Of a stretch of 52,063 nt of DNA, positions 1 to 52,063 are shown in pieces (position 1 is the first letter of the stretch; every line of letters starts with the position of its first letter). Source of the DNA: a virus (taxonomy: Duplodnaviria; Caudoviricetes); IMG/VR virus record IMGVR_UViG_3300046812_000338, positions 1 through 52,063 of that record; one strand, written 5' to 3'. The notes under the pieces are model-generated. The model was not told the origin of the DNA. It saw only the letters and a program-made list of their open reading frames with translations, and ran no database searches. A program made the position numbers and the translations under genes.

Positions 1-127
1 AGATGGCGAAGGCATTCGTCCTGCTGCTTTTCAACCTCGGCGGTGACGCCCGCACCGGCGCCCGGGCGCTCGGGGAAACCTTCGTCGACACCTACCTGGA
101 GAACCAGGGCGCGATCGCCGACTGGTA
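1..127. repeat. 127-bp terminal direct repeat, copy 1 (circular assembly overlap)
   Basis: Bases 1-127 (agatggcgaagg...gccgactggta) are identical to 51937-52063. Confidence 0.97.
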
Positions 128-1436
128 CTGCGAGATGACGCAGACGTTGATCGACCGCCTGGTCGCCCGCAACTACGGCCCCGACGTGCAGGCGCCGCTG
201 CTGACCTACACGCGCCTGGAGACTGCCGAGCTTGCCTTCAAAGACCTCGCGCTGGGGATCGAAAAAGGCGCGATCGCCGTCGACCCCGAACTGCGCGCCT
301 ACATCGGCGAGCGCTGGAAGGTGCCGGGCCAGCAGGCCGCGGCTGAGCTTGAAGAAGAGGAACCGCCCACGCCTCCCACGCCGCCGCCTCCCGCCAACGA
401 AGGCGACCCCGAAGAAGAAGGCCCGCCCGCGGCAAGCGGGGGCGCAGGCGCCCGCAGGAAGCCCCAGCCGAAGCGCACCGCGCTCGCTGAGTCGATCGCC
501 GCGGCGCTGACGGCCCCGATGACCTGGCCGGCGCTCGCTCGCGCGGCCGGCTCAGACCCGAAGAACCAGACGGCCCGGCGCGCCCGAGACGGGCTGATCG
601 CCGAGGGTGTCATCTTGCGCGGGCCGAAGAAGTCGGGGTCTGACACCCTGATCCCGGTGATCGCGCTGGAACTGCCGGCGCGCGACCTGAAGCGCCAGCC
701 GCTCGCCTTCGAGGTCACGGCCGAAGTCAACTTCGCCGCGATGGAGACGACCTACACGACCGGCCGCGAGACGCTGGTTGCCGCCTACCGCGAGGGCCAG
801 GCCCAGCAGGTCGAGCAGCTGGTCGCCGAGGTCGAGGCCGCCGAGGGCGACGCGGCCAAGCTGGCGTCGCTGACCTGCGACCCCGTCGACACCGACGTCC
901 TCGCCGGCCCCATGCAGGTCATCGCCGAAGAAGGGGTCGCCTCGGCCCGCGGCGAGCATGAAGCCCAGGTCGGGGTGCAGGCCCGGGCAGCCTTCCGCGG
1001 CGCCGAAGCCGACGCGACCGCCCTGGCGGCTCGGGTACGCGAACGCGCCGAAGCTGCCGCCCTGACGCTGTCGAGCGGCCTGTCGGCGTCGGCGAGCAAG
1101 AAAGCCGCCGCGGTGTCGACGCTGGAACCGACCGCCGCCGCCGCCGCGGTGCGCGAGCATCTGACCTCGCTGTCGGACGCGGCGCTCAATGAGCAGCTGG
1201 GCGGGGCGACGTCGCAGGCGTACAACTCCGGGCGCCTGGCCTACATGAAGGCGGCCGGGCCGAAAGAAATCTACGCATCCGAGATTCTTGACGAGAACGT
1301 CTGTTCGGCCTGCAACTCCATCGACGGCACCGAATGGACCACGCTGGGCGAAGCCGAAGTCGCCTATCCGGTCGGCGGCTACGTGGAATGCGAAGGCGGC
1401 CTGCGCTGCCGCGGCACCCTGGTCGCGGTGTACTGA
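3..1436 (+). CDS. Portal C-terminal part fused to a MuF-like head morphogenesis domain (joined protein about 815 aa)
   Basis: Continues the 50925 frame; ends with the MuF-type Cys motif DENVCSACNSIDG...ECEGGLRCRGTLV. Confidence 0.85.
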   Translation: MAKAFVLLLFNLGGDARTGARALGETFVDTYLENQGAIADWYCEMTQTLIDRLVARNYGPDVQAPLLTYTRLETAELAFKDLALGIEKGAIAVDPELRAYIGERWKVPGQQAAAELEEEEPPTPPTPPPPANEGDPEEEGPPAASGGAGARRKPQPKRTALAESIAAALTAPMTWPALARAAGSDPKNQTARRARDGLIAEGVILRGPKKSGSDTLIPVIALELPARDLKRQPLAFEVTAEVNFAAMETTYTTGRETLVAAYREGQAQQVEQLVAEVEAAEGDAAKLASLTCDPVDTDVLAGPMQVIAEEGVASARGEHEAQVGVQARAAFRGAEADATALAARVRERAEAAALTLSSGLSASASKKAAAVSTLEPTAAAAAVREHLTSLSDAALNEQLGGATSQAYNSGRLAYMKAAGPKEIYASEILDENVCSACNSIDGTEWTTLGEAEVAYPVGGYVECEGGLRCRGTLVAVY

Positions 1437-1633
1437 TGCGCTGGCGGGCGATCGCCTGCGCCCTCTTCTACGGCTTCGTGCCCTCCCGCTTCTACGAGCC
1501 GACGCCCCACTTCGAGCCGATGACGTACTTCGCTCACCTGCGCATGAATCTCGCCTACGCCTGGGTCTGGGCCACGCGCCGCGAGGACGCCGTCGACCGG
1601 GCCTTCGAGCGCGAGGTCAACGGACGTACTTGA
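1436..1633 (+). CDS. Hypothetical protein (65 aa, MRWRAIACALFY...)
   Basis: ATG overlaps the portal stop (TGATG coupling). Confidence 0.6.
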   Translation: MRWRAIACALFYGFVPSRFYEPTPHFEPMTYFAHLRMNLAYAWVWATRREDAVDRAFEREVNGRT

Positions 1634-1659
1634 CAAACCGCCAGCGGATCGGCTACGGT
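1630..1659 (+). promoter_or_regulatory. Sigma70-type promoter with partial operator palindrome
   Basis: TTGACA 1630-1635, 18-nt spacer, TACGGT 1654-1659; cttgacaaaccgccag resembles the CTTG-N8-CAAG motif. Confidence 0.65.
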
Positions 1660-1666
1660 CCCTGCT

Positions 1667-1912
1667 GTCGGGCGTCGAAACCCGACTGGGAGTGACAGAA
1701 CAGGGGTTGACGTGCAGCGTAGGCCCCGAATTGTGATTCCGGCGTTGAAAAGCCAAGCCCGCAGGCTGATCCAGTGAGCGGGCGCGGTGGCTTCTCCGAG
1801 TACACAGGAGGGGCAGCGTGGTCCGGTGGGACCTAACGGAAGGCTCCGAGGTAAGCCACGCTACGGCAAGGCTGCACCCTCGGTTGCGGGCAGCCAATCC
1901 CGCCTCCCGCTT
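1667..1912 (+). ncRNA. Candidate structured ncRNA with tRNA-like closing domain
   Basis: Intergenic, directly after a promoter. Nested stems: GGGAG 1688/CTCCC 1904, GTGCAGC 1712/GCTGCAC 1871, GCCCGC 1757/GCGGGC 1778, AGCGTGGT 1815/GCCACGCT 1855. T-arm-like GCGGG-CAGCCAAT-CCCGC at 1886-1903. Confidence 0.55.
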
Positions 1913-1926
1913 AACTTCGCTCGATC

Positions 1927-2160
1927 ATGGACGCCCACCAGCTACTCACATTCCCGGCCTCGAAGCTGACGCGCAAGCAGCGGCTCGAACGCGCCGCGCT
2001 GAAGCGCGTGATCGCCGAGCAGGCGCGCCAGTCCCTCCCGCCCGGCTACGCCGTCGGCGAGGTCCGCGTGATCGACCGCAGCGTCGAGCCGAACCCGGTG
2101 CCGCGCCCCGGCCACATCATCGTGAACTACGCGGACACCGACCTCGGCCGCTTCGGCTGA
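1927..2160 (+). CDS. Hypothetical protein
   Basis: 77-aa ORF, stop coupled to next start. Confidence 0.6.
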   Translation: MDAHQLLTFPASKLTRKQRLERAALKRVIAEQARQSLPPGYAVGEVRVIDRSVEPNPVPRPGHIIVNYADTDLGRFG

Positions 2161-2366
2161 TGATGGTCCGCTACTGCGAGCGCCACCGCCACGCCTGGCC
2201 GGTCGCCTCGCCCTGGAAGCCCGGCGAGCCGTGCCCGTTCTGGGCGAAGGTGACGAGCGCGGCGAAGGGCACCGACTGCGAGGTCAAGTCCGTCGACGCG
2301 ATCGCCAAGATCAACGACCTCGGCTTCGAGCTAGAGGGCCGCGACGAGGAAGAACGGGAATCCTGA
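2160..2366 (+). CDS. Hypothetical Cys/His-containing protein
   Basis: TGATG coupling; MMVRYCERHRHAW...CPFW. Confidence 0.55.
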   Translation: MMVRYCERHRHAWPVASPWKPGEPCPFWAKVTSAAKGTDCEVKSVDAIAKINDLGFELEGRDEEERES

Positions 2367-2584
2367 TGGACCGCCCCTGGGCCGTCATCTGCGGGGACCT
2401 CGACCGGGCAACTGGTCGGCGCTTCCCGCCCATCGTCGGGGGTGGGCGAGGGGTCGTCATGCCCTCGCAGTCAACGCAGTCGACGGCGCTCGCCACCCTC
2501 GAAGAGATGCTGCGCGATCCGGTCATCATGGAGGGCCTGCCGCGCGCCTTCGCCCAGTTCGGCGAGCAGGTCGGGATTCTCTGA
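2366..2584 (+). CDS. Hypothetical protein
   Basis: TGATG coupling; MDRPWAVICGD... Confidence 0.55.
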   Translation: MDRPWAVICGDLDRATGRRFPPIVGGGRGVVMPSQSTQSTALATLEEMLRDPVIMEGLPRAFAQFGEQVGIL

Positions 2585-2637
2585 CCGACGCCGCAAAGAT
2601 CGAGGGCCTGCGCCAGCTGCTCGCCCGCGATGGCGCC

Positions 2638-2865
2638 GTGACGTTCAAGGGCACCGGCGCCACGGTGCGCCGCGACCCCGGCTGGCACTCCGACCTGCTC
2701 GTCGACCGCTCCGACGGCTCGACCAGGCGCGTCAACGAATTCGCCCACGACCAGCTGGCCCAGGCGTATGCGATCGCCATCGCCGAGCCGGTCCCGCCGG
2801 CGCCCCCGCCGCAGGTCTTCAAGCCGACGCGCTCGCGCACCGACTTCGGCGAGTGCCCGTTTTGA
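2638..2865 (+). CDS. Hypothetical protein (start uncertain; frame is open from at least CTG 2581)
   Basis: ORF fills the gap before the protease gene. Confidence 0.5.
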   Translation: MTFKGTGATVRRDPGWHSDLLVDRSDGSTRRVNEFAHDQLAQAYAIAIAEPVPPAPPPQVFKPTRSRTDFGECPF

Positions 2866-2975
2866 AATGTATGCACGAACCTGAATAAGATTGCGGCGGG
2901 CCGGGAGGTCGCGGATCGCTTGCCGCCGCCGTCGCCTCCAGATGGGGCGCCCGGCCCAACCCTAGACTTGCCGGC

Positions 2976-4613
2976 ATGGACTTCGTCACCATCCTCGACG
3001 TCGAGCTATGCAGCGCCGGCATGGAGTGGCCGAGCGCCGGCGGCCCCGTCACCCTCACGCTGGAGCATATTGCCGACTGCGTCCTCGCCGGCCAGGACTC
3101 GCTGATTACGCCCCCGCGGCTGAAGATCGGCCACTCCGACCCTCGCTTCGCCGACCCCGACGACCCGGGCCACGACCCCTTCTACGATGGCGAACCTGCG
3201 TTCGGGTCGATCGCGAACCTGCGCCTGACCAACGACGGCGCCACGGCGACCGGCGACTACGTCTACGTGCCGCGCTGGCTGGCCGAGGTCGCCCCGTCGG
3301 CCTACCCCTCGCGCTCGATCGAGGGCGCCTACACGATCGGCGAGGGGCCGGGCGGCAAACTCGAAGCCCGCTGGGACGTCGAGACGCCGGCGGGCCGCCA
3401 CTACAGCTTCGTGCTGACGGCCTGCGCGATGCTCGGCATGCAGGCCCCGGCGGTGAAGGACCTGGAGGACCTACAGTTCCGACTTACGGAAGGTAAGGGC
3501 GTGATCGTCACCGGCGACCCCGACTCCGGGGGGGTCCCGGTCGCTGTCAGCATGGGGGCCGTGGAGACGATGACACTGACGCAGGCCCCCGCGGCGATCG
3601 TCAGCCTCGCCGGTGGCGCAGGCCCCGTCACCCTGGAGGCCGACGTCGACAAAGTCATCGACGTCTTCTACTCAGAGTTCTGCGTCGACGAGCGCTATTG
3701 GTGGTGGGCGCGCGCGGTGCGCGTCGATCCCAACGTCATCATCGCCGACGACGACGAAGGCTCGCTCTGGACGGTTCCGATCCAGACCGACGCCGACCAG
3801 AACATCACCTTCGGGGAGCCAACCCGCGTCCTCCAGACCTTCACGCCAGCACCCGAGGCCGCCGCGGCGCTGTCAGCTGCGGCGACGACGAACCCCGACA
3901 CAGGCCACACGGTGAAAGCGTTTTCGGCCCGTGAGCAGACGGTTCCGGCCGATCGCAAAGAGCGGCCAGAGGGGGGGGGTAGCGGAGGCGGTAACAATTC
4001 CGGCATGGACTTGAAAGACCTCACCGACGCGCAGCGCACCCGCCTTCTGTCGGCCCTCAGTCTCGCCGAGGACGCGACCGACGAGCAGGTCGAGGAGGCG
4101 CTGAACGCCGACGCTCCCGATGACGGGAACGGCGGCGAGGGCGGCGGCGACGGCGGCGCACCCGAGGGTGGCGACGGCGGCGAGGGCGAGGGTTCCGAGG
4201 GCGAGGGCGGCGAGTCCGGCTCCGAGGGCGGCGAGGGCGAGGGCGGCGGCGAGGGTGCCGAGGCCAGCGAGTCCCCGACCACCACCGTCGACACGACCGT
4301 CCTGACCCAGCTGCAAGACGACGCGGCAGCCGGGCGCGCAGCCCGCGATCAGCAGATCGCCGCGCATCGCGACTCGATCCTGAAAGCCGCGCTCGCCACG
4401 GGCAAGATCACGCCGTCCTCTCGCGAGGCATGGGCGACCAAGCTGGCGGCAGTGCCCGAGGCCACCGAGGCCGAATTGGAGGCGCTGCCCGAAAACCTTG
4501 TCCCGGTCGAAGAGTTGGGCCACGGCGGCTCCAGCCCGACCGACCCGGTCGCCGTCTCGGCCGAGCAGATGGGGGCCATGTTCCCCGGTCATCCCCAGAG
4601 AGAGGCTGCCTAA
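2976..4613 (+). CDS. Mu gpI-like capsid maturation protease/scaffold
   Basis: LKIGH, AYPSRSIE and LTACAMLGMQAPAVKDL protease-like motifs; acidic/helical C-terminal scaffold (ALATGKITP); lies upstream of the capsid genes. Confidence 0.82.
   Translation: MDFVTILDVELCSAGMEWPSAGGPVTLTLEHIADCVLAGQDSLITPPRLKIGHSDPRFADPDDPGHDPFYDGEPAFGSIANLRLTNDGATATGDYVYVPRWLAEVAPSAYPSRSIEGAYTIGEGPGGKLEARWDVETPAGRHYSFVLTACAMLGMQAPAVKDLEDLQFRLTEGKGVIVTGDPDSGGVPVAVSMGAVETMTLTQAPAAIVSLAGGAGPVTLEADVDKVIDVFYSEFCVDERYWWWARAVRVDPNVIIADDDEGSLWTVPIQTDADQNITFGEPTRVLQTFTPAPEAAAALSAAATTNPDTGHTVKAFSAREQTVPADRKERPEGGGSGGGNNSGMDLKDLTDAQRTRLLSALSLAEDATDEQVEEALNADAPDDGNGGEGGGDGGAPEGGDGGEGEGSEGEGGESGSEGGEGEGGGEGAEASESPTTTVDTTVLTQLQDDAAAGRAARDQQIAAHRDSILKAALATGKITPSSREAWATKLAAVPEATEAELEALPENLVPVEELGHGGSSPTDPVAVSAEQMGAMFPGHPQREAA
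4005..4613 (+). CDS. Putative nested in-frame scaffolding protein (Mu gpZ-like)
   Basis: In-frame ATG 4005 (MDLKDLTDAQ...) preceded by a G-run at 3971-3979 and AACAAT 6 nt upstream, as in the other leaderless structural promoters. Confidence 0.55.
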   Translation: MDLKDLTDAQRTRLLSALSLAEDATDEQVEEALNADAPDDGNGGEGGGDGGAPEGGDGGEGEGSEGEGGESGSEGGEGEGGGEGAEASESPTTTVDTTVLTQLQDDAAAGRAARDQQIAAHRDSILKAALATGKITPSSREAWATKLAAVPEATEAELEALPENLVPVEELGHGGSSPTDPVAVSAEQMGAMFPGHPQREAA

Positions 4614-5390
4614 ATGTCGCTGGAGAGAGTAGCCCGCTACAAGCCGGGCGAGAACATTACGGTCGCCGCCACGGTGGCCGGCGGGATCATCGTCGCGGGC
4701 CGCTTCATCGCGGTCACGGGGATCAACAAACGGCGCGGCTACGACGGCGCCCACTGCTCCGCCGGCGACGAGCGCCCCTTCGGCGTCTCCCAGCGCTCCA
4801 CGATGGACCCCGCCACCGAGGACGTCAACTCGACCGAACTGCTGACCGAGTGCGTCCGCTCCAACGCGGTCGCCCGCGTCGAGGCCGGCGAGGAAATCGA
4901 CGCGACCCCCCCGGTCGACGTCGCGGTCGGTGCCGGCGGCAAAGCCATCGTCGCCGACGTCGCAGTCGCAGCCTTCCTGAAAACCGGCGTCGTCGGCAAC
5001 AACAACGCGATCACCTGGACGGCCCGCGAGGCCGGGGTCGATGGCGACAACCTGACGATCACCCTTCAGAACACCGGCAAAGAAAAAGCCCTTTCGGTCG
5101 ACGTCAACGGCAACGACATCGTCGTCACCCTGGCGACCAACGGGGTCGGCGCCGGCGAAGTCACTTCCACCGCGGCGCAGGTCGAGGCCGCAGTCCTGGC
5201 GCACGACACCGCCTCCCAGCTGGTCACGACCGCCAACACGGCCGGATCGTCCGGCGCGGGCGTCGTCGTCGCAGTCGCGAAAACGAACCTCGCGGGCGGC
5301 GAAGAAGGAACCGCAGGCGCGGTCGCGGTCGGCAAAGCCCTCACGTCGGCGGCAGCGGCCGGCGACATCATCGAGGTCGACCTCTACTAG
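4614..5390 (+). CDS. Head decoration/cement protein (DUF2190-like) with an inserted domain
   Basis: Between scaffold and capsid; VEAGEEI...VGAGGKA and AVGKALTSAAAAGDIIEVDL DUF2190-like motifs. Confidence 0.7.
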   Translation: MSLERVARYKPGENITVAATVAGGIIVAGRFIAVTGINKRRGYDGAHCSAGDERPFGVSQRSTMDPATEDVNSTELLTECVRSNAVARVEAGEEIDATPPVDVAVGAGGKAIVADVAVAAFLKTGVVGNNNAITWTAREAGVDGDNLTITLQNTGKEKALSVDVNGNDIVVTLATNGVGAGEVTSTAAQVEAAVLAHDTASQLVTTANTAGSSGAGVVVAVAKTNLAGGEEGTAGAVAVGKALTSAAAAGDIIEVDLY

Positions 5391-5403: not shown

Positions 5404-6438
5404 ATGAAGACCAACCACACAGACCTCCAGGCCCTTCTCGACAACGTCGCCCCCGGTGCGCGCCTGACCGCAGACGGCCGCATCCCGGCGATGTCCGGCG
5501 GCGCAGGCCCCCAGAACCCGGTCGCCCAGCCTCTCGGCGGGGCCACGGTTCAGGGCACAACCGTCACCGTCGACACCTACGTCAACCCGCCGACGAAAAT
5601 CCCGGCGATCATCCGGGAGCTTGTCGGGGCCGACGCCGGGTACTTCATCGAGCGCGTCTTCGGCACGATCGGCAGCCCCATCCAGGGCGGCGCCGTGATC
5701 GTCGAAGAGACGTTCCCCGAGGACTTCTTCCTTCCGGCCGACAGCGTCCCCGCGCCTCGCGCGCCGGGCGCCGAGGCACCGCGTCTCGCCAGCACCCGCC
5801 ACGAACCGAAAGTGAAACGCCCCGAGTCGTGGGCCGGGTCGATCGAGGTCACCGACGAGGCCAAACAGCGCAACAACGTCCTCGCCGTGCGGCGCCAGTT
5901 CACGCAGGCGGCCAACAGCTTCTCCCAGATCATCCAGCAGCGCGGCATCGAAGTGCTGATCGAGGCGATCGAAGCATGGGAACGGACCCTGGAAGCGAAA
6001 ACCGTCTGGCAGGCAACGCCGGGCGCGGGCCTCTTCAACGTCGACCCGAAAACGCTGCCGGCCTTCGACATCGCCCGGGTCCTCAAACAGTTCCGTGACG
6101 ACAAAGTCGGCATCCGTCCCGACACGGCGATCATGAACACCGAAGAACTTCTCTTCCTGGAGACGATCTACACCGGGGTCGGCGCGGTGCCGACGCTGGA
6201 GTCGGCCTTCTCTCGCCAGGGGATCACCGACATCATCGGCTCCCCGCTCGTCGACGAGGGCGACGTGATCTTCGCGAAGGCCGGCGCCCCGGGCGCGATC
6301 GGCTGGGAGCTTCCGATGTCCCAGGAGATGGTCCGCGAGGGCGTCCGCAAAACCGACGTCTACGTCCTGGAGTGCCGCCCCGTCTTCGCGGCCTTCGACG
6401 CCTCGGCCGTCCTGATGCTCCAGGGCACGGACAAATAG
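5404..6438 (+). CDS. Major capsid protein
   Basis: 344 aa; position; VTVDTYVNPPTKIP, RAPGAE, IEVTDEAKQRN motifs typical of actinophage capsids; followed by a terminator. Confidence 0.85.
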   Translation: MKTNHTDLQALLDNVAPGARLTADGRIPAMSGGAGPQNPVAQPLGGATVQGTTVTVDTYVNPPTKIPAIIRELVGADAGYFIERVFGTIGSPIQGGAVIVEETFPEDFFLPADSVPAPRAPGAEAPRLASTRHEPKVKRPESWAGSIEVTDEAKQRNNVLAVRRQFTQAANSFSQIIQQRGIEVLIEAIEAWERTLEAKTVWQATPGAGLFNVDPKTLPAFDIARVLKQFRDDKVGIRPDTAIMNTEELLFLETIYTGVGAVPTLESAFSRQGITDIIGSPLVDEGDVIFAKAGAPGAIGWELPMSQEMVREGVRKTDVYVLECRPVFAAFDASAVLMLQGTDK

Positions 6439-26798: not shown

Positions 26799-26829
26799 CT
26801 TGACAAAGCGCAAGCGCACCCGATAGGCT
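26799..26829 (+). promoter_or_regulatory. Promoter with CTTG-N8-CAAG operator
   Basis: CTTGACAAAGCGCAAG 26799-26814; TTGACA-18-TAGGCT; ATG 6 nt downstream. Confidence 0.8.
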
Positions 26830-26864
26830 CGGGCCATGAACCGAGTCGATCAAGGGAGTCGCTG

Positions 26865-34897: not shown

Positions 34898-34997
34898 GCG
34901 CACGTAGCTCAGTGGTCAACGCGGCCTGGTAATTCGGGTCGCAAAGAGCGGTGGCCTTTCAAGCCACAGGTCGCGGGTTCGATTCCCGTCGTGCGCA
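34898..34997 (+). tRNA. tRNA-Glu(TTC) with a hairpin inserted in the D-loop
   Basis: Acceptor GCGCACG/CGTGCGC; D-stem GCTC/GAGC; anticodon arm GTGGC-CTTTCAA-GCCAC (TTC at 34958-34960); AGGTC variable loop; T-arm GCGGG-TTCGATT-CCCGT. Confidence 0.8.
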
Positions 34998-35061
34998 TCC
35001 AGGCCTCGCCTCCCGCCGCCTCGCGCCCGTTCCGTCCCCGGCCCTGGTCAGAGTGCCCGTC

Positions 35062-35646
35062 ATGGACTTCGTCCCTGAGAGAGGCCCAGAGCGCTTCCGA
35101 TTCAAGGTGCCCGGCCAGGCCGCCGGGGCGGGATCGAAGAAGGCGTTCCCCGTCACCCGCGGCGACGGGTCCTTCGTCTACACGAAGGGCGGCGTCCTGC
35201 TGCTGAACTACACCCACGACTCGAAGAAGACGGCGCCGTGGATGAAGGCGGTGAAGCAGGTCGCCAAGACGGGCTGGGGCGATCGCGCCCCGCTCGACGG
35301 CCCCCTCTACGTCGACCTCTGGTTCTATGAGATGCGCCCCGCCGGCGACTACCTGAAGCGCAAGGCGGGCCGCGTCCTGCGCCCCGAGGCACCGGCCTAC
35401 CCCGACCAGACCCAGACGCACGACTACGACAAGATGCGGCGCGCGATCAGCGACTCGCTCACCCAGGCGGGCGTGATCGCCGACGACCGCCGGGTCGTGG
35501 GAGGCGAGGGCTGGAAGCTATTCGCCGACAACTTCAACCTGACCGAGCCGTTCACGGTCGTCATCGTCGGCTCGATGAACTTCACCACCGCCGAAGAGGC
35601 GGGCCTTGTCACCCCGGACCCGGCCGGGCAGGCCGCGCTGGTCTAG
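35062..35646 (+). CDS. rusA: RusA-like Holliday junction resolvase
   Basis: FKVPG...GSKK, PLDGPLYVDLWF, HDYDKMRRAISDSLTQAGVIADDRRVV. Confidence 0.8.
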   Translation: MDFVPERGPERFRFKVPGQAAGAGSKKAFPVTRGDGSFVYTKGGVLLLNYTHDSKKTAPWMKAVKQVAKTGWGDRAPLDGPLYVDLWFYEMRPAGDYLKRKAGRVLRPEAPAYPDQTQTHDYDKMRRAISDSLTQAGVIADDRRVVGGEGWKLFADNFNLTEPFTVVIVGSMNFTTAEEAGLVTPDPAGQAALV

Positions 35647-38140: not shown

Positions 38141-38171
38141 CTTGACAAAGCGCAAGCGCGTCTGTTAGCGT
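38141..38171 (+). promoter_or_regulatory. Promoter with CTTG-N8-CAAG operator
   Basis: CTTGACAAAGCGCAAG 38141-38156; TTGACA-18-TAGCGT. Confidence 0.8.
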
Positions 38172-38178
38172 TCGCGCC

Positions 38179-38712
38179 ATGAACCGAAGTCAACCCCAGG
38201 AGGCCACGATGACCACTGCAACCCGCCCTGCGCCCGAGGGCTTCGACGAGAAGCTGACCAGCGGCGAGTATTTCCGCCTGCATGCCGCCTCTGCGGCCTC
38301 GATGTTCGGCTACCAGCCGCCTGCGATGGCGAGCAGCTACCCGCGGGCGCTGGCCCTGCTGGCGAAAGGCGCCGCGATCAGCGACCGGCAGGCCGAGCTA
38401 GTCAACGCCGTCGTCAAGTCCCTCTCTGCCTTCGGCCCCACGGCCGGCCAGGCGGTCGAGGCCATGTACCGCGCCGCCGAGCGCCGCCTCGCCGACCCCT
38501 ACGTCGACGTGATTCGCAAGGCCGGCCCCGAACCAGGGCGGCATTCCGACTGGACCCACGACTGGACGGTCAGCGACGCGGCCACCTTCGCGGTCACCCT
38601 GCACGAAGCGGCCCGCTGCTACGTGCCCAGCACCGGCATCGGGTGGGCGCTCGCCGCGGTCCTCGACGAGCATAGCCTCGGTGGCCGCACGATCCGCGGG
38701 GAGGTTGGCTGA
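38179..38712 (+). CDS. Hypothetical protein (leaderless ATG 38179 or SD-led ATG 38209)
   Basis: AGGAGG upstream of the second in-frame ATG; TGATG coupled to the next gene. Confidence 0.65.
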   Translation: MNRSQPQEATMTTATRPAPEGFDEKLTSGEYFRLHAASAASMFGYQPPAMASSYPRALALLAKGAAISDRQAELVNAVVKSLSAFGPTAGQAVEAMYRAAERRLADPYVDVIRKAGPEPGRHSDWTHDWTVSDAATFAVTLHEAARCYVPSTGIGWALAAVLDEHSLGGRTIRGEVG

Positions 38713-39647
38713 TGGCCCGCCCCCGCGGATACGCCGACTGGTCGCCGAAGCCCGACACGCTCGCGCTGATCGACCAGGTCCAGGTCATCCTGAACGAATA
38801 CCGCGCGAACCTGCCGATGACGGCGCGGCAAATCTTCTACCGGCTCGTCGGCGCCTACAACTACCCGAAGACCGAGCGCGACTACAAGAACCTCTGCGAG
38901 AAGCTGGTCCGCGCCAGGCGCGCCCAGATGATCGGCTTCGACGTGATCCGCGACGACGGCACCACGACCGCCGGCGGTGACTGGGGGTACGTCGACCCGG
39001 CGTCCTTCTGGGAGGACCTGAAGGATTCGGGCCGCGGTTACCACCGCTACACCCGCGAGGGCCAGGAGTATCGGATCGAGTTGTGGTGCGAGGCGGGCGG
39101 CATGGTGCCGCAGCTGGAGCGCGTCGCGCAGGACTTCGGCGTCCGCGTCTACTCGACCGGCGGGTTCTCGTCGGTCACGGTCACGCACGAAATCGCCCAG
39201 CGCGCCCTGCGGTTCTCGAAGCCGACCGTCTTCCTGCACGTCGGCGACTACGATCCCAGCGGCGAGTCGATCTTCGACGCCATGACGACCGACGCCCTGC
39301 ACTTCATCGCCGGGCACTCCGGGGGCGGCTTCATCTCCGACCACGAAGAGAAGTTCAACCCGATCCGCGTCGCGCTCACCCAGGACCAGGTCGCCGAGCA
39401 TGACCTGCCGACGGCGCCGCCGAAGTCGAGCGACAGCCGCTCGGTCAACTGGTCCGACGAAACCTGCCAGGCCGAGGCGATGCCGCCCGACCTGCTCGCC
39501 GAAACGGTGCGCGACGCGCTCGCCGAGTGGACCGACGAGGACACCCAGCGCGAGGTCGAAGCGAAGGCCGACCGCGAGCGCGACCTGATCGTCGAGCGCC
39601 TGGAGTCGATCGAGTTCGGCGAGGCCGACGACGAGGATGTCGACTGA
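38712..39647 (+). CDS. Topoisomerase VI-A/JetD-like winged-helix + TOPRIM protein
   Basis: MTARQIFYRLV, IELWCEA, LHVGDYDPSGESI, EAM motifs. Confidence 0.75.
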   Translation: MARPRGYADWSPKPDTLALIDQVQVILNEYRANLPMTARQIFYRLVGAYNYPKTERDYKNLCEKLVRARRAQMIGFDVIRDDGTTTAGGDWGYVDPASFWEDLKDSGRGYHRYTREGQEYRIELWCEAGGMVPQLERVAQDFGVRVYSTGGFSSVTVTHEIAQRALRFSKPTVFLHVGDYDPSGESIFDAMTTDALHFIAGHSGGGFISDHEEKFNPIRVALTQDQVAEHDLPTAPPKSSDSRSVNWSDETCQAEAMPPDLLAETVRDALAEWTDEDTQREVEAKADRERDLIVERLESIEFGEADDEDVD

Positions 39648-50693: not shown

Positions 50694-50745
50694 AGCCTAG
50701 CTGCTCTAGTTGCGGTTTGTCAAGTGCCTGATGCCGTGCTAGGGT
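50694..50745. promoter_or_regulatory. Overlapping divergent promoters sharing a TTG-N8-CAA operator
   Basis: Minus strand: CTTGACAAACCGCAAC (50724-50709), TTGACA-18-TAGGCT, ATG 6 nt later. Plus strand: TTGTCA 50717-17-TAGGGT 50740. Confidence 0.7.
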
Positions 50746-50924
50746 GGCGCCATCGTGTGACGCCTGCCCCTTCTCCCTCGATCTGCTCTGCCGGGTCGGT
50801 CGTAGGATGGGGGCGTGTTGGCACGGTTCATCGCCGCGGCCCCGCCAATCGGTCAGCACATGACGAAATGCGGGGCCGACGGCGTTCTAGGGGGGGTGAC
50901 ACCTTTCGCTAGCTTCGGGTGTCA

Positions 50925-52063
50925 ATGCCATCCGAAGCCGTAGAAGCAGCCCGCGCCCGACTCGCCGCCCGAGGCGGCCCCGTCGAGGCGGCAGCCGTGA
51001 GCAAGGACGCCCAGCGCGGCGCCCCGACCAAAGAGGAAGGCATATCCGGCCTGGTCATGCCGGGCCTGGGGACGGTCGGCGGCTTCAACCATCCCGAGTG
51101 GGCCTACTTCGTCGACGACCGCGAGTACGCGCCAGAGCTTCAGTGGCCCGCCTCGGTGCCGAAGATCGAACGCATGGAAACCGACGCCGAGTTGAAAGGG
51201 CTGATCCTCGCCACGACGCTGCCGATCCGCCGCTTCCGCTGGGAAATCGACCCCAACGAGGCCGACCCCAACGTCGTCGCCCACGCTGCCGAAGACCTGA
51301 ACCTGCCGGTCGCCGGCGAGGACGAAGGCCCCCGGCGCCGCGGCACCTTCAACCACGACCGGCACATGAGCCACGCCCTGCGCGCGCTCACCCAGGGCCA
51401 CTACCACTTCGAGGAAGTGCTGGAGCTTCGCGACGACGGCCTTCTGCACCTGGTCAAACTGGGCACCCGCCCGCCGCGCTCGCTGATCGCGATCCGCACC
51501 GACGAACACGGCGCCCTGGAGGCGATCGAACAGCTGCGCGGCGGCTTCACGACCGGCGGTCAGATTCTTGCCGGCGCCGCGGGTGGGGCGATCCGCGTCC
51601 TGGAGGCCGACCGCCTCGTCACCTACCTCTGGGACACCGCCGACGACGGCGACCAGGTCGGGCGCTCGATGCTGCGCGCCTGCTACCGCGACTGGCTGGT
51701 CAAGGACGCGCTGATCCGCGTCGACGCCGTCAAGCATGAGCGAAACGCGATGGGCATCCCGTGGTTTGAGGTCGACCCGGCGGCCTCAAAGGAGCAGATC
51801 GAATCCCTCGCCCAGCGCGCCGAAGAACTGCGCGCCTCGACCGTCGGCGGCGGCGCCGGCCCGGGCAAGCTGCGGATCGCCGGCGTCGAAGGCGTCTTGC
51901 CCGACACGATCGGCTCGATCCGCTACCACGACGAGCAGATGGCGAAGGCATTCGTCCTGCTGCTTTTCAACCTCGGCGGTGACGCCCGCACCGGCGCCCG
52001 GGCGCTCGGGGAAACCTTCGTCGACACCTACCTGGAGAACCAGGGCGCGATCGCCGACTGGTA
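50925..52063 (+). CDS. Portal protein (DUF935/Mu gp29-like), N-terminal part; continues at 3..1436
   Basis: Open frame from ATG 50925 (MPSEAVEAAR...GRSMLRACYRDWLVKDALIRVDAVKHERNAMGIP...IRYHDEQMAKAF), in frame with ATG 51939, which equals position 3; motifs typical of DUF935 portals; absent from the ORF track because no stop occurs before the window end. Confidence 0.9.
   Translation, partial: MPSEAVEAARARLAARGGPVEAAAVSKDAQRGAPTKEEGISGLVMPGLGTVGGFNHPEWAYFVDDREYAPELQWPASVPKIERMETDAELKGLILATTLPIRRFRWEIDPNEADPNVVAHAAEDLNLPVAGEDEGPRRRGTFNHDRHMSHALRALTQGHYHFEEVLELRDDGLLHLVKLGTRPPRSLIAIRTDEHGALEAIEQLRGGFTTGGQILAGAAGGAIRVLEADRLVTYLWDTADDGDQVGRSMLRACYRDWLVKDALIRVDAVKHERNAMGIPWFEVDPAASKEQIESLAQRAEELRASTVGGGAGPGKLRIAGVEGVLPDTIGSIRYHDEQMAKAFVLLLFNLGGDARTGARALGETFVDTYLENQGAIADW
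51937..52063. repeat. 127-bp terminal direct repeat, copy 2
   Basis: Identical to 1-127; lies inside a continuous ORF, so most likely a k-mer overlap of a circular contig. Confidence 0.97.

Follow-up and report, generated by a model that had tools for sequence, protein, structure and literature searches.

Does the interval that separates the portal gene of a soil phage from its protease gene encode a structured RNA, and if so, to which kind of RNA does it belong? This question is raised by the DNA stretch analyzed here, which we call the window and which is the complete IMG/VR virus record IMGVR_UViG_3300046812_000338 (Duplodnaviria; Caudoviricetes). The window has 52,063 base pairs (bp) with direct terminal repeats and a guanine-plus-cytosine (GC) fraction of 0.688, and its + strand carries nearly all of the genes. 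From the letters of this stretch, the original prediction had placed a non-coding RNA of about 245 nucleotides (nt), with several stems and driven by a promoter, in the portal-to-protease interval, and had described it as possibly new and as closed by an end resembling that of tRNA or transfer-messenger RNA (tmRNA). All sequence elements listed for this RNA are present, and the region is confirmed to be a genuine structured RNA. It is very probably a divergent, enlarged and GC-rich homologue of manA (Rfam RF01745), located in the head-assembly module of a 69% GC soil phage.

The protease protein matched 10 viral loci, seven of them close (L001-L007, 56-81% identity) and three distant. The structure was derived from five full-length copies of the RNA (window, L001, L002, L005, and L007), and the counts of pairs below refer to this set. 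The minimum free energy of the region has a z-score of -2.88, and 2 of 200 shuffles fold as well. RNAalifold gave 80 pairs, 28 of which are compensatory, and a pseudoknot was tested by swapping the tip of the hairpin P2 for a long-range pairing in this structure. With the pseudoknot, pairing is found in 97.7% of the pair cells and changes on both sides in 30 of the 80 pairs; none of 500 shuffles reaches these two values, and slid controls, in which the partners were shifted by 1-3 columns, give 39-52% paired cells and no more than six double-changed pairs. The pseudoknot itself is paired in 100% of its cells, with four of five pairs changed on both sides, and occurs among the copies as GUGCA/UGCAC, GUGGU/ACCAC, GCGGU/GCCGC, and GCAGA/UCUGC.

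Changes on both sides are found across most of the remaining structure (helix coordinates are collected in Table 1): five of seven pairs in helix 1 (P1), three of five in P5, and, within P3, 1/5, 1/5, 7/14, 3/8, and 3/5 pairs in helices 6, 7, 8, 9, and 10, respectively. In the inner stem of P2, two of six pairs covary according to both RNAalifold and the pair counts. All five pairs of the closing helix are formed in all five copies, and an A-U pair has become U-G in L007. Four loops are invariant, namely ACACA in P3b, CGGUGG in P3c, GCUAnGGCAAGGC in P4, and AGCCA in P5, and the stems under those of P3b, P3c, and P5 covary. These results also sort the helices that had been proposed for the window. 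The 5' hairpin GTCGGG/CCCGAC, the closing helix GGGAG/CTCCC, and the hairpin GCGGG-8nt-CCCGC are real and in place, and the hairpins AGCCA..GCCCGC/GCGGGC..TGGCT (P3a) and CTCC/GGAG (P3b) are supported. The long-range pairing GTGCAGC/GCTGCAC (1712-1718/1871-1877) is likewise real and covaries, but it joins the P2 loop to the 3' side of P4 as a pseudoknot and does not form a stem enclosing the other hairpins. The pairings GAAT/ATTC and AGCGTGGT/GCCACGCT give way to covarying pairings of P2/P3 and P3c/P4, and neither is conserved in L002 or L007. A pairing noted by eye, between the GAUC of the P3a tip and a GAUC before the downstream ATG, was rejected as it fails in L002 and L007.

The kinship to manA was found by Infernal searches against Rfam, which is the check that the original prediction had named as able to remove its novelty. 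In a scan of a short stretch, the manA model matches 1667-1913 over all of its 192 positions (1-192) with 35.2 bits and an E value of 5.1e-7, and manA is the sole significant Rfam family there; the span agrees with the 1667-1912 of the original prediction. The same holds for all four copies tested (window, 35.2; L011, which is the copy on the L007 contig, 38.4; L001, 29.8; L002, 32.6 bits); the matches cover the full model with E values from 2e-7 to 2e-5, and no other family is significant. In the opposite direction, a covariance model built from this clade only (R1), which matches the window at 1661-1916 with 274.7 bits, finds canonical manA in 5 of 80 marine viral loci (E values from 3.8e-7 to 1.4e-4). 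All five matches lie at the coordinates of the manA signature, and R1 gives no match elsewhere in the 80 loci. The signature of 21 bases, which comprises the closing helix, the junction GUGAC-GAA, and AAUCC...CnCCC, is located at 1688-1700 and 1896-1908 of the window. This core signature, GGGAGTGACnGAA...AATCCnnnCnCCC, occurs with a gap of 130-160 nt in at least 120 viral loci, and with a gap of 180-210 nt only in the present clade (three contigs).

The consensus fold has the same helix order as the structure line of the manA model, i.e., P1, a junction with P2, a branched P3, P4, and P5, and the P4 region aligns to P4 of the model. The interior of P3, with 95 nt here against 46 model positions, is skipped by the Rfam alignment via local ends. 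The pairing of the P2 loop with the 3' bulge of P4 is present in 119 of 119 unique canonical manA sequences among the matches listed, as GGCA/UGCC (111), GGAA/UUCC (5), GGCA/UGCU (2), or GGUC/GACC (1), three of these types being Watson-Crick throughout. Because the matches are full-length and reciprocal and the pseudoknot is held in common, we regard the RNA as a divergent variant of a known family and not as a new class, so that the description as a novel RNA is not upheld, even though the scores are below the threshold of Rfam.

Table 1. Positions in the window of the RNA, its helices, the promoters of its class, and the neighboring genes.
Feature	Position	Strand	Remarks
manA-type structured RNA	1667-1913	+	predicted start 1666/1667; 3' end approximate; about 245 nt
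Promoter of the RNA	1630-1659	+	-35 TTGACA 1630-1635; 18-nt spacer; -10 TACGGT 1654-1659
P1 (5' hairpin)	1667-1686	+	GTCGGG 1667-1672/CCCGAC 1681-1686; loop CGTCGAAA
Closing helix	1688-1692/1904-1908	+	GGGAG/CUCCC, then junction GUGAC-GAA
P2	1695-1734	+	outer pairs 1695-1698/1731-1734; inner stem 1703-1708/1722-1727; 13-nt loop
Pseudoknot	1712-1716/1873-1877	+	GUGCA (P2 loop)/UGCAC (P4 3' internal loop)
Enlarged P3 domain	1737-1841	+	stem 1737-1746 with 1815-1819 and 1837-1841
P3a	1752-1788	+	hairpin of P3
P3b	1790-1814	+	hairpin of P3
P3c	1820-1833	+	hairpin of P3
P4	1846-1883	+	outer CCGAGG/CCTCGG; inner GCC/GGC; invariant apical GCUAnGGCAAGGC
P5 hairpin	1886-1903	+	GCGGG-CAGCCAAU-CCCGC; 8-nt loop; abuts CUCCC 1904-1908
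orf1927	1927-2160	+	basic protein of 77 amino acids; ATG 18 nt past the closing helix
Sister promoter	26800-26829	+	TTGACAAAsCGCmA class
Sister promoter	38142-38171	+	TTGACAAAsCGCmA class
Sister promoter	50694-50723	-	TTGACAAAsCGCmA class
Portal gene	50919-52063 and 3-1436		spans the record ends
Open reading frame of 65 amino acids	1436-1633		between the portal gene and the RNA stretch
Four small open reading frames	1927-2865		downstream of the RNA
Mu-like protease/scaffold gene	2976-4613		
Open reading frame without assignment	4614-5390		after the protease/scaffold gene
Major head protein	5404-6438		

In common with canonical manA, the RNA has the 5' hairpin, the GGGAG/CUCCC closing helix, the GUGAC-GAA junction, the succession of P2, branched P3, P4, and P5, the pseudoknot between the P2 loop and the P4 3' bulge, and a P5 loop ending in AAUCC; it is also carried by phages and stands directly 5' of an open reading frame (ORF) on the same strand. 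Differences are found in size, composition, and setting. The core is 221 nt here versus 164-185 nt, and the GC fraction of the RNA is 0.64-0.66 versus 0.43-0.52, for canonical manA among the matches listed, for which the GC fraction of the locus is 0.33-0.46. The interior of P3 is about twice the size of that in the model and cannot be aligned to it, the pseudoknot has five pairs (up to seven) instead of four, the P2 loop has 13 nt, and the P5 loop has 8 instead of 11 nt. The carrier is a 69% GC soil phage, whereas canonical manA is carried by marine cyanophages or Photobacterium; the location in a head-assembly module also differs, and the gene following the RNA encodes a small basic protein and not, as with canonical manA, a metabolic product.

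In its account of manA, Weinberg 2010 (PMC2864571) describes the motif from marine samples, gamma-proteobacteria, and T4-like cyanophages, presents it as a riboswitch candidate in 5' untranslated regions, and marks a "pseudoknot?" in the figure. The pseudoknot found here would correspond to that marked pairing. The regulatory role is called unverified in a later text (PMC9964418), and the statements on manA in both sources (PMC2864571, PMC9964418) give no known ligand. The family was updated in Rfam 14.3, according to the release description (PMC7779021), and a report on Bifidobacterium breve mentions a 178-bp manA motif on a megaplasmid and notes that manA motifs sometimes adjoin tRNAs (PMC10832533). 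A 2026 preprint presents cryo-electron microscopy structures of a 60-mer, a decamer, and an octamer of manA formed via kissing loops, made in vitro at about 3 mg/mL RNA (10.64898/2026.07.01.735769). No earlier report of a GC-rich soil-phage variant turned up in our literature search on manA RNA.

The RNA has a promoter of its own. The element TTGACA-18-TACGGT that had been proposed ahead of the RNA is present, one base to the left of the position implied, and it is conserved in L001, L002, L005, and L007. It bears an extended -35 motif, TTGACAAAsCGCmA, which is common to all four members of its class in the window. The pattern TTGACAN{16,19}TANNNT occurs four times in the window, where 0.10 occurrences are expected; none of 100 shuffles has as many. 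A generic sigma-70 scan did not call the promoter of the RNA, because its -10 element matches at only three of six bases. Copies of the class are present in all seven close relatives (L001-L007), mostly with a leaderless ATG after them. Within the window, the three sister promoters are followed, 7-8 nt past the -10 element, by a leaderless ATGAACCG, giving leaderless messages. Since the sister promoters put the start at this distance, transcription of the RNA is predicted to begin at 1666/1667, where both P1 and the Rfam match start. For one of the sister promoters, the leaderless ATG at 26836 opens a mini-ORF of nine codons only, overlapping the ATG of the next gene.

In five relatives (L001 at 4469, L002 at 5053, L003 at 4367, L005 at 4853, and L007 at 4473), the + strand of the portal-protease stretch carries a second promoter of this class together with a leaderless gene. 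Therefore, this variable slot looks like a landing place for small, independently transcribed cassettes. In L002, a tRNA-Gln (CTG) gene at 4137-4210 (+) ends 3 nt before the -35 element of the RNA promoter, so that the order is tRNA, promoter, manA-type RNA, and orf1927.

The distribution of the RNA was examined by blastn with 1631-1930, which matched L005 (95.9%), L001 (84.1%), L002 (78.4%), and L007 (68.6%), and only the 3' 136 nt in L006; no match was obtained in L003, L004, and L008-L010. For L004, only 1056 nt are available upstream of the protease gene, too little to judge whether the RNA is there. In L003, a close relative, no RNA was found even with the filters off (best score, 4.5 bits), no Rfam match was obtained in the same slot, and the orf1927 homologue is also missing. 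In L006 (3504-3912, on the contig also listed as L015), the promoter, P1, and P2, i.e., the 5' half, are swapped for unrelated sequence, and the 3' half of the RNA and orf1927 are nearly unchanged; this is a natural half-deletion. The clade is small and comprises, besides the window, four full-length copies and one half copy.

Searches of wider collections did not enlarge this clade. Pattern scans of IMG/VR, a metagenome collection, and 185,579 species genomes gave no new true copy. A pattern based on the loops gave no locus in the species genomes and three metagenome loci, one of which is the L006 contig itself, and the other two (L016 and L017) are chance matches in which R1 finds nothing. 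In blastn searches, the RNA had no counterpart among GenBank phages; among PLSDB plasmids, it had one match of 36 nt, on a Pararhizobium plasmid, which was rejected (R1, 8 bits over 20 nt).

The gene linked with the RNA is orf1927. Its homologue starts 14-18 nt after the RNA in all six RNA-bearing contigs, and no Shine-Dalgarno sequence is found ahead of its ATG in the window. The arrangement of promoter, RNA, and orf1927 is a co-inherited accessory cassette in a small clade of soil phages. With regard to canonical manA, 117 of 120 loci listed have a same-strand ORF of at least 50 amino acids (aa) within 400 nt, with a median gap of 38 nt, as obtained by simple ORF calling. The orf1927 family comprises 16 clusters at 50% identity, with the conserved N-terminus LLTxPxSxLTRKQRxxRAxxK, and a search for related loci with the family alignment returned the same five contigs. 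In an AlphaFold2 model of the protein, residues 3-8 and 16-35 form helices, with a predicted local distance difference test score of 90-94 over the first 30 residues, and the C-terminal part is poorly defined. No match to orf1927 was obtained in Pfam or PHROG, a word-index search found only orf1927 itself, and an Atlas search gave scores of at most 0.78 with template-modeling scores below 0.5, which are uninformative and led to no assignment. Because an N-terminal extension of one family member (P0006) reads as a translated P5 hairpin, its sequence suggests that the RNA precedes the gene there too.

The protein may be compared with the N protein of phage lambda. The lambda N/boxB pair is an arginine-rich peptide with its RNA target. 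Orf1927 resembles N in being a short phage protein with a putative N-terminal helix rich in arginine and lysine (TRKQRxxRAALKR) and a gene beside a structured RNA, and differs from it in that there is no sequence or family match and in that the RNA is far larger than the boxB hairpin.

Traces of the RNA were also found in RNA libraries. Four soil metatranscriptome runs, all from one study, each gave one contig of 217-231 nt that is 95-99% alike to the RNA and lies wholly inside approximately 1679-1909; the differences match the L005 variant, with one further change from G-C to G-U. This hints at the presence of the folded RNA in an amount sufficient for assembly. The lack of library coverage over the flanking ORFs is not usable as a sign that the flanks are silent. 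Two further library pieces, at 1577-1611 and 2278-2312, are less than 90% alike and continue into unlike sequence, and were assigned to other organisms.

Taking these results together with the manA homology, we infer the function of the RNA as follows, and favor a cis-acting leader of orf1927 with a core that persists; given the homology, we see about an even chance that the RNA acts in cis as a leader. The RNA is made from its own host-type promoter, one of four of a single class. A junction closed by GGGAG/CUCCC carries P2, a P3 with three hairpins, P4, and P5, and the pseudoknot locks this fold. The analysis demonstrates the fold and its conservation, the kinship to manA, the promoter class, and the linkage to orf1927; the mechanism goes beyond these results. 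Being the putative 5' leader of orf1927, the compact fold may act on the orf1927 message, at the start of translation or on stability, and may respond to a ligand or to the Orf1927 protein, and the folded core may persist as a discrete stable RNA.

Several points weigh against this reading, as to both the family and the function. All copies tested are below the Rfam gathering score (29.8-38.4 against 55.2 bits), whole-window Rfam scans with default filters report no manA while those of short stretches with laxer filters do, and R1 with default filters found only five of the 80 canonical loci. The covariation comes from only five related sequences, and because the same set gave the structure, the comparison with the slid controls is inflated; P4 and the outer pairs of P2 are invariant and have no covariation support of their own. 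The RNA-library contigs, from a single study, show neither strand, ends, nor level, and carry-over of DNA is possible. Since L006 retains orf1927 with the 5' half of the RNA replaced, the gene can exist without an intact RNA. No terminator-like site was found in 1300-3100, and because no terminator, sequestered Shine-Dalgarno sequence, or alternative pairing serving as an expression platform was found, the cis mechanism is read from the position of the RNA only.

The main rival to the cis-acting leader is a stand-alone, stable RNA, in which the manA homologue would form closed homo-oligomers or a particle with Orf1927 and orf1927 would merely be co-transcribed. Given the homology, we consider this a possible but doubtful explanation. 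The canonical manA RNAs form kissing-loop oligomers in the preprint cited above, and the RNA of the window belongs to the same family and has invariant apical loops that could be interfaces; the invariant loops of P3b, P3c, P4, and P5 fit sequence-specific contacts. The RNA-library contigs that lie wholly inside the RNA and the promoter that the RNA has for itself point in the same direction, as does the tRNA-Gln gene directly upstream in L002, in view of the adjacency of manA motifs and tRNAs mentioned for other loci (PMC10832533). On the other hand, covarying loop-loop complementarity for kissing interfaces was looked for in the copies and none was found, and a leader would be just as compatible with the linkage to orf1927 in six of six contigs and with the 18-nt spacing. 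The assemblies described in the preprint were made in vitro at the high RNA concentration given above, with constructs that, as presented there, are shorter than 200 nt versus about 245 nt here, and have other peripheral helices (10.64898/2026.07.01.735769).

That the manA homologue acts in some way other than as a cis leader or as a stand-alone or oligomeric RNA is, again given the homology, unlikely. One more elaborate arrangement would be a two-part system, in which the enlarged manA-type RNA is a stable, possibly self-assembling particle and not a riboswitch and the arginine-rich helical protein binds it, both being expressed early from a host-type promoter; we regard this combination as speculative and rather improbable.

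With respect to the family, a new RNA class unrelated to manA, whose likeness would be due to convergence or chance, is very improbable. It could draw on the fact that all manA scores are under the gathering threshold, on the P3 interior that cannot be aligned to the manA model, and on a host range, GC content, and genomic context unlike those of canonical manA. However, the model matches are reciprocal and full-length, nucleotides of the junction and tail are in common, the pseudoknot is at the same position, and the 21-base signature, judged by its spacing, finds only manA and the present clade among the matches listed.

A tRNA- or tmRNA-like domain, with an acceptor stem and a T-arm mimic recognized by tRNA-handling enzymes, is extremely improbable. 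The 5-bp P5 abuts the 5-bp closing helix and superficially looks like a T-arm on an acceptor stem, and this short hairpin adjoining a terminal helix is the only likeness to the tRNA-like domain of tmRNA or to tRNA-elbow mimics. ARAGORN reports 0 tRNA or tmRNA genes in the window, and in 1400-3000 the tRNA and tmRNA models of Rfam find nothing at E values up to 10. The 8-nt loop CAGCCAAU is not a T-loop and has no TTC, no CCA is present, and the sequence runs 18 nt more to the ATG of orf1927; both helices are those of P5 and the closing helix in the manA model. The proposed tRNA/tmRNA-like end is thus not borne out, and the remark made with it, that a tag ORF, a TTC T-loop, and CCA were not seen, agrees with our search, in which none of the three was found.

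Finally, that the region codes for protein, either in the frame from GTG 1818 (with AGGAGG 6 nt before it and open for 182 aa in the window) or in a minus-strand ORF at 1379-1897 (open across the RNA in the window and L001), can practically be dismissed, and the suspicion that the overlapping ORFs are spurious is confirmed: all + frames have at least one stop in all five copies, which differ by 1- and 2-nt insertions or deletions; the GTG frame has lengths of 182, 200, 126, 24, and 31 aa in five copies despite the AGGAGG ahead, and the motif was not found in L002; of 33 variable columns, 11 fall on the first codon position, 14 on the second, and 9 on the third, with no third-position excess; the minus-strand frame has stops in L005 and L002; and double compensatory changes dominate the substitutions.

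Some other features of the window are recorded here. Directly 5' of the protease gene, an AT-rich island at 2862-2975 (+) contains a promoter-like site, TTGAAA-18-TAAGAT (2862-2891), followed before the gene by a GC-rich inverted repeat, GCGGCGG...CCGCCGCC; the island may be a second regulatory region. A tRNA at 34898-34997 (+) is detected by Rfam with 67 bits and is not called by ARAGORN; it has a 29-nt insertion in the D-loop, its anticodon loop is read as CUUUCAA, which would make it Glu/UUC, and its 3' part overlaps the start of a RusA-like ORF (34951-35646). For the ORF at 38712-39647 (+), the match is PHROG 6247, annotated as a DNA topoisomerase (E value, 3.9e-37); no integrase is among the 20 further ORFs scanned against PHROG.

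The host can be considered from the promoters. Actinomycetota typically have -10 boxes of the form TANNNT and abundant leaderless mRNAs, and these features, together with weak blastn matches to Arthrobacter phages, give a weak hint that the host is among Actinomycetota. No prophage or host was found by the search with the protease alignment, which matched 109 pattern stretches in genome contigs, none of which was confirmed.

No function has been assigned since 2010 to manA, a widespread RNA carried by phages. According to the 2026 preprint, manA builds RNA cages of 60 subunits in vitro (10.64898/2026.07.01.735769). The RNA of the window is neither a new RNA class nor a tRNA mimic; it is a new, enlarged manA variant whose ecological and genomic setting is also new. 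With it, the family is no longer confined to marine cyanophages, Photobacterium, and one Bifidobacterium plasmid but also includes 69% GC soil phages. The finding gives firm covariation support for the manA pseudoknot and shows that the Rfam threshold for manA misses such variants. It also provides a clean experimental setting, with a defined promoter, a predicted start, a single linked gene for a small protein, natural relatives that have the cassette, lack it, or keep half of the RNA, and traces in soil RNA libraries. If the RNA and Orf1927 did form a two-part system, the manA family at large would consist of stand-alone phage RNAs that have protein partners, and the soil-phage variant, with its simple cassette and an RNA-less relative, would be a tractable system for finding out the function of manA.

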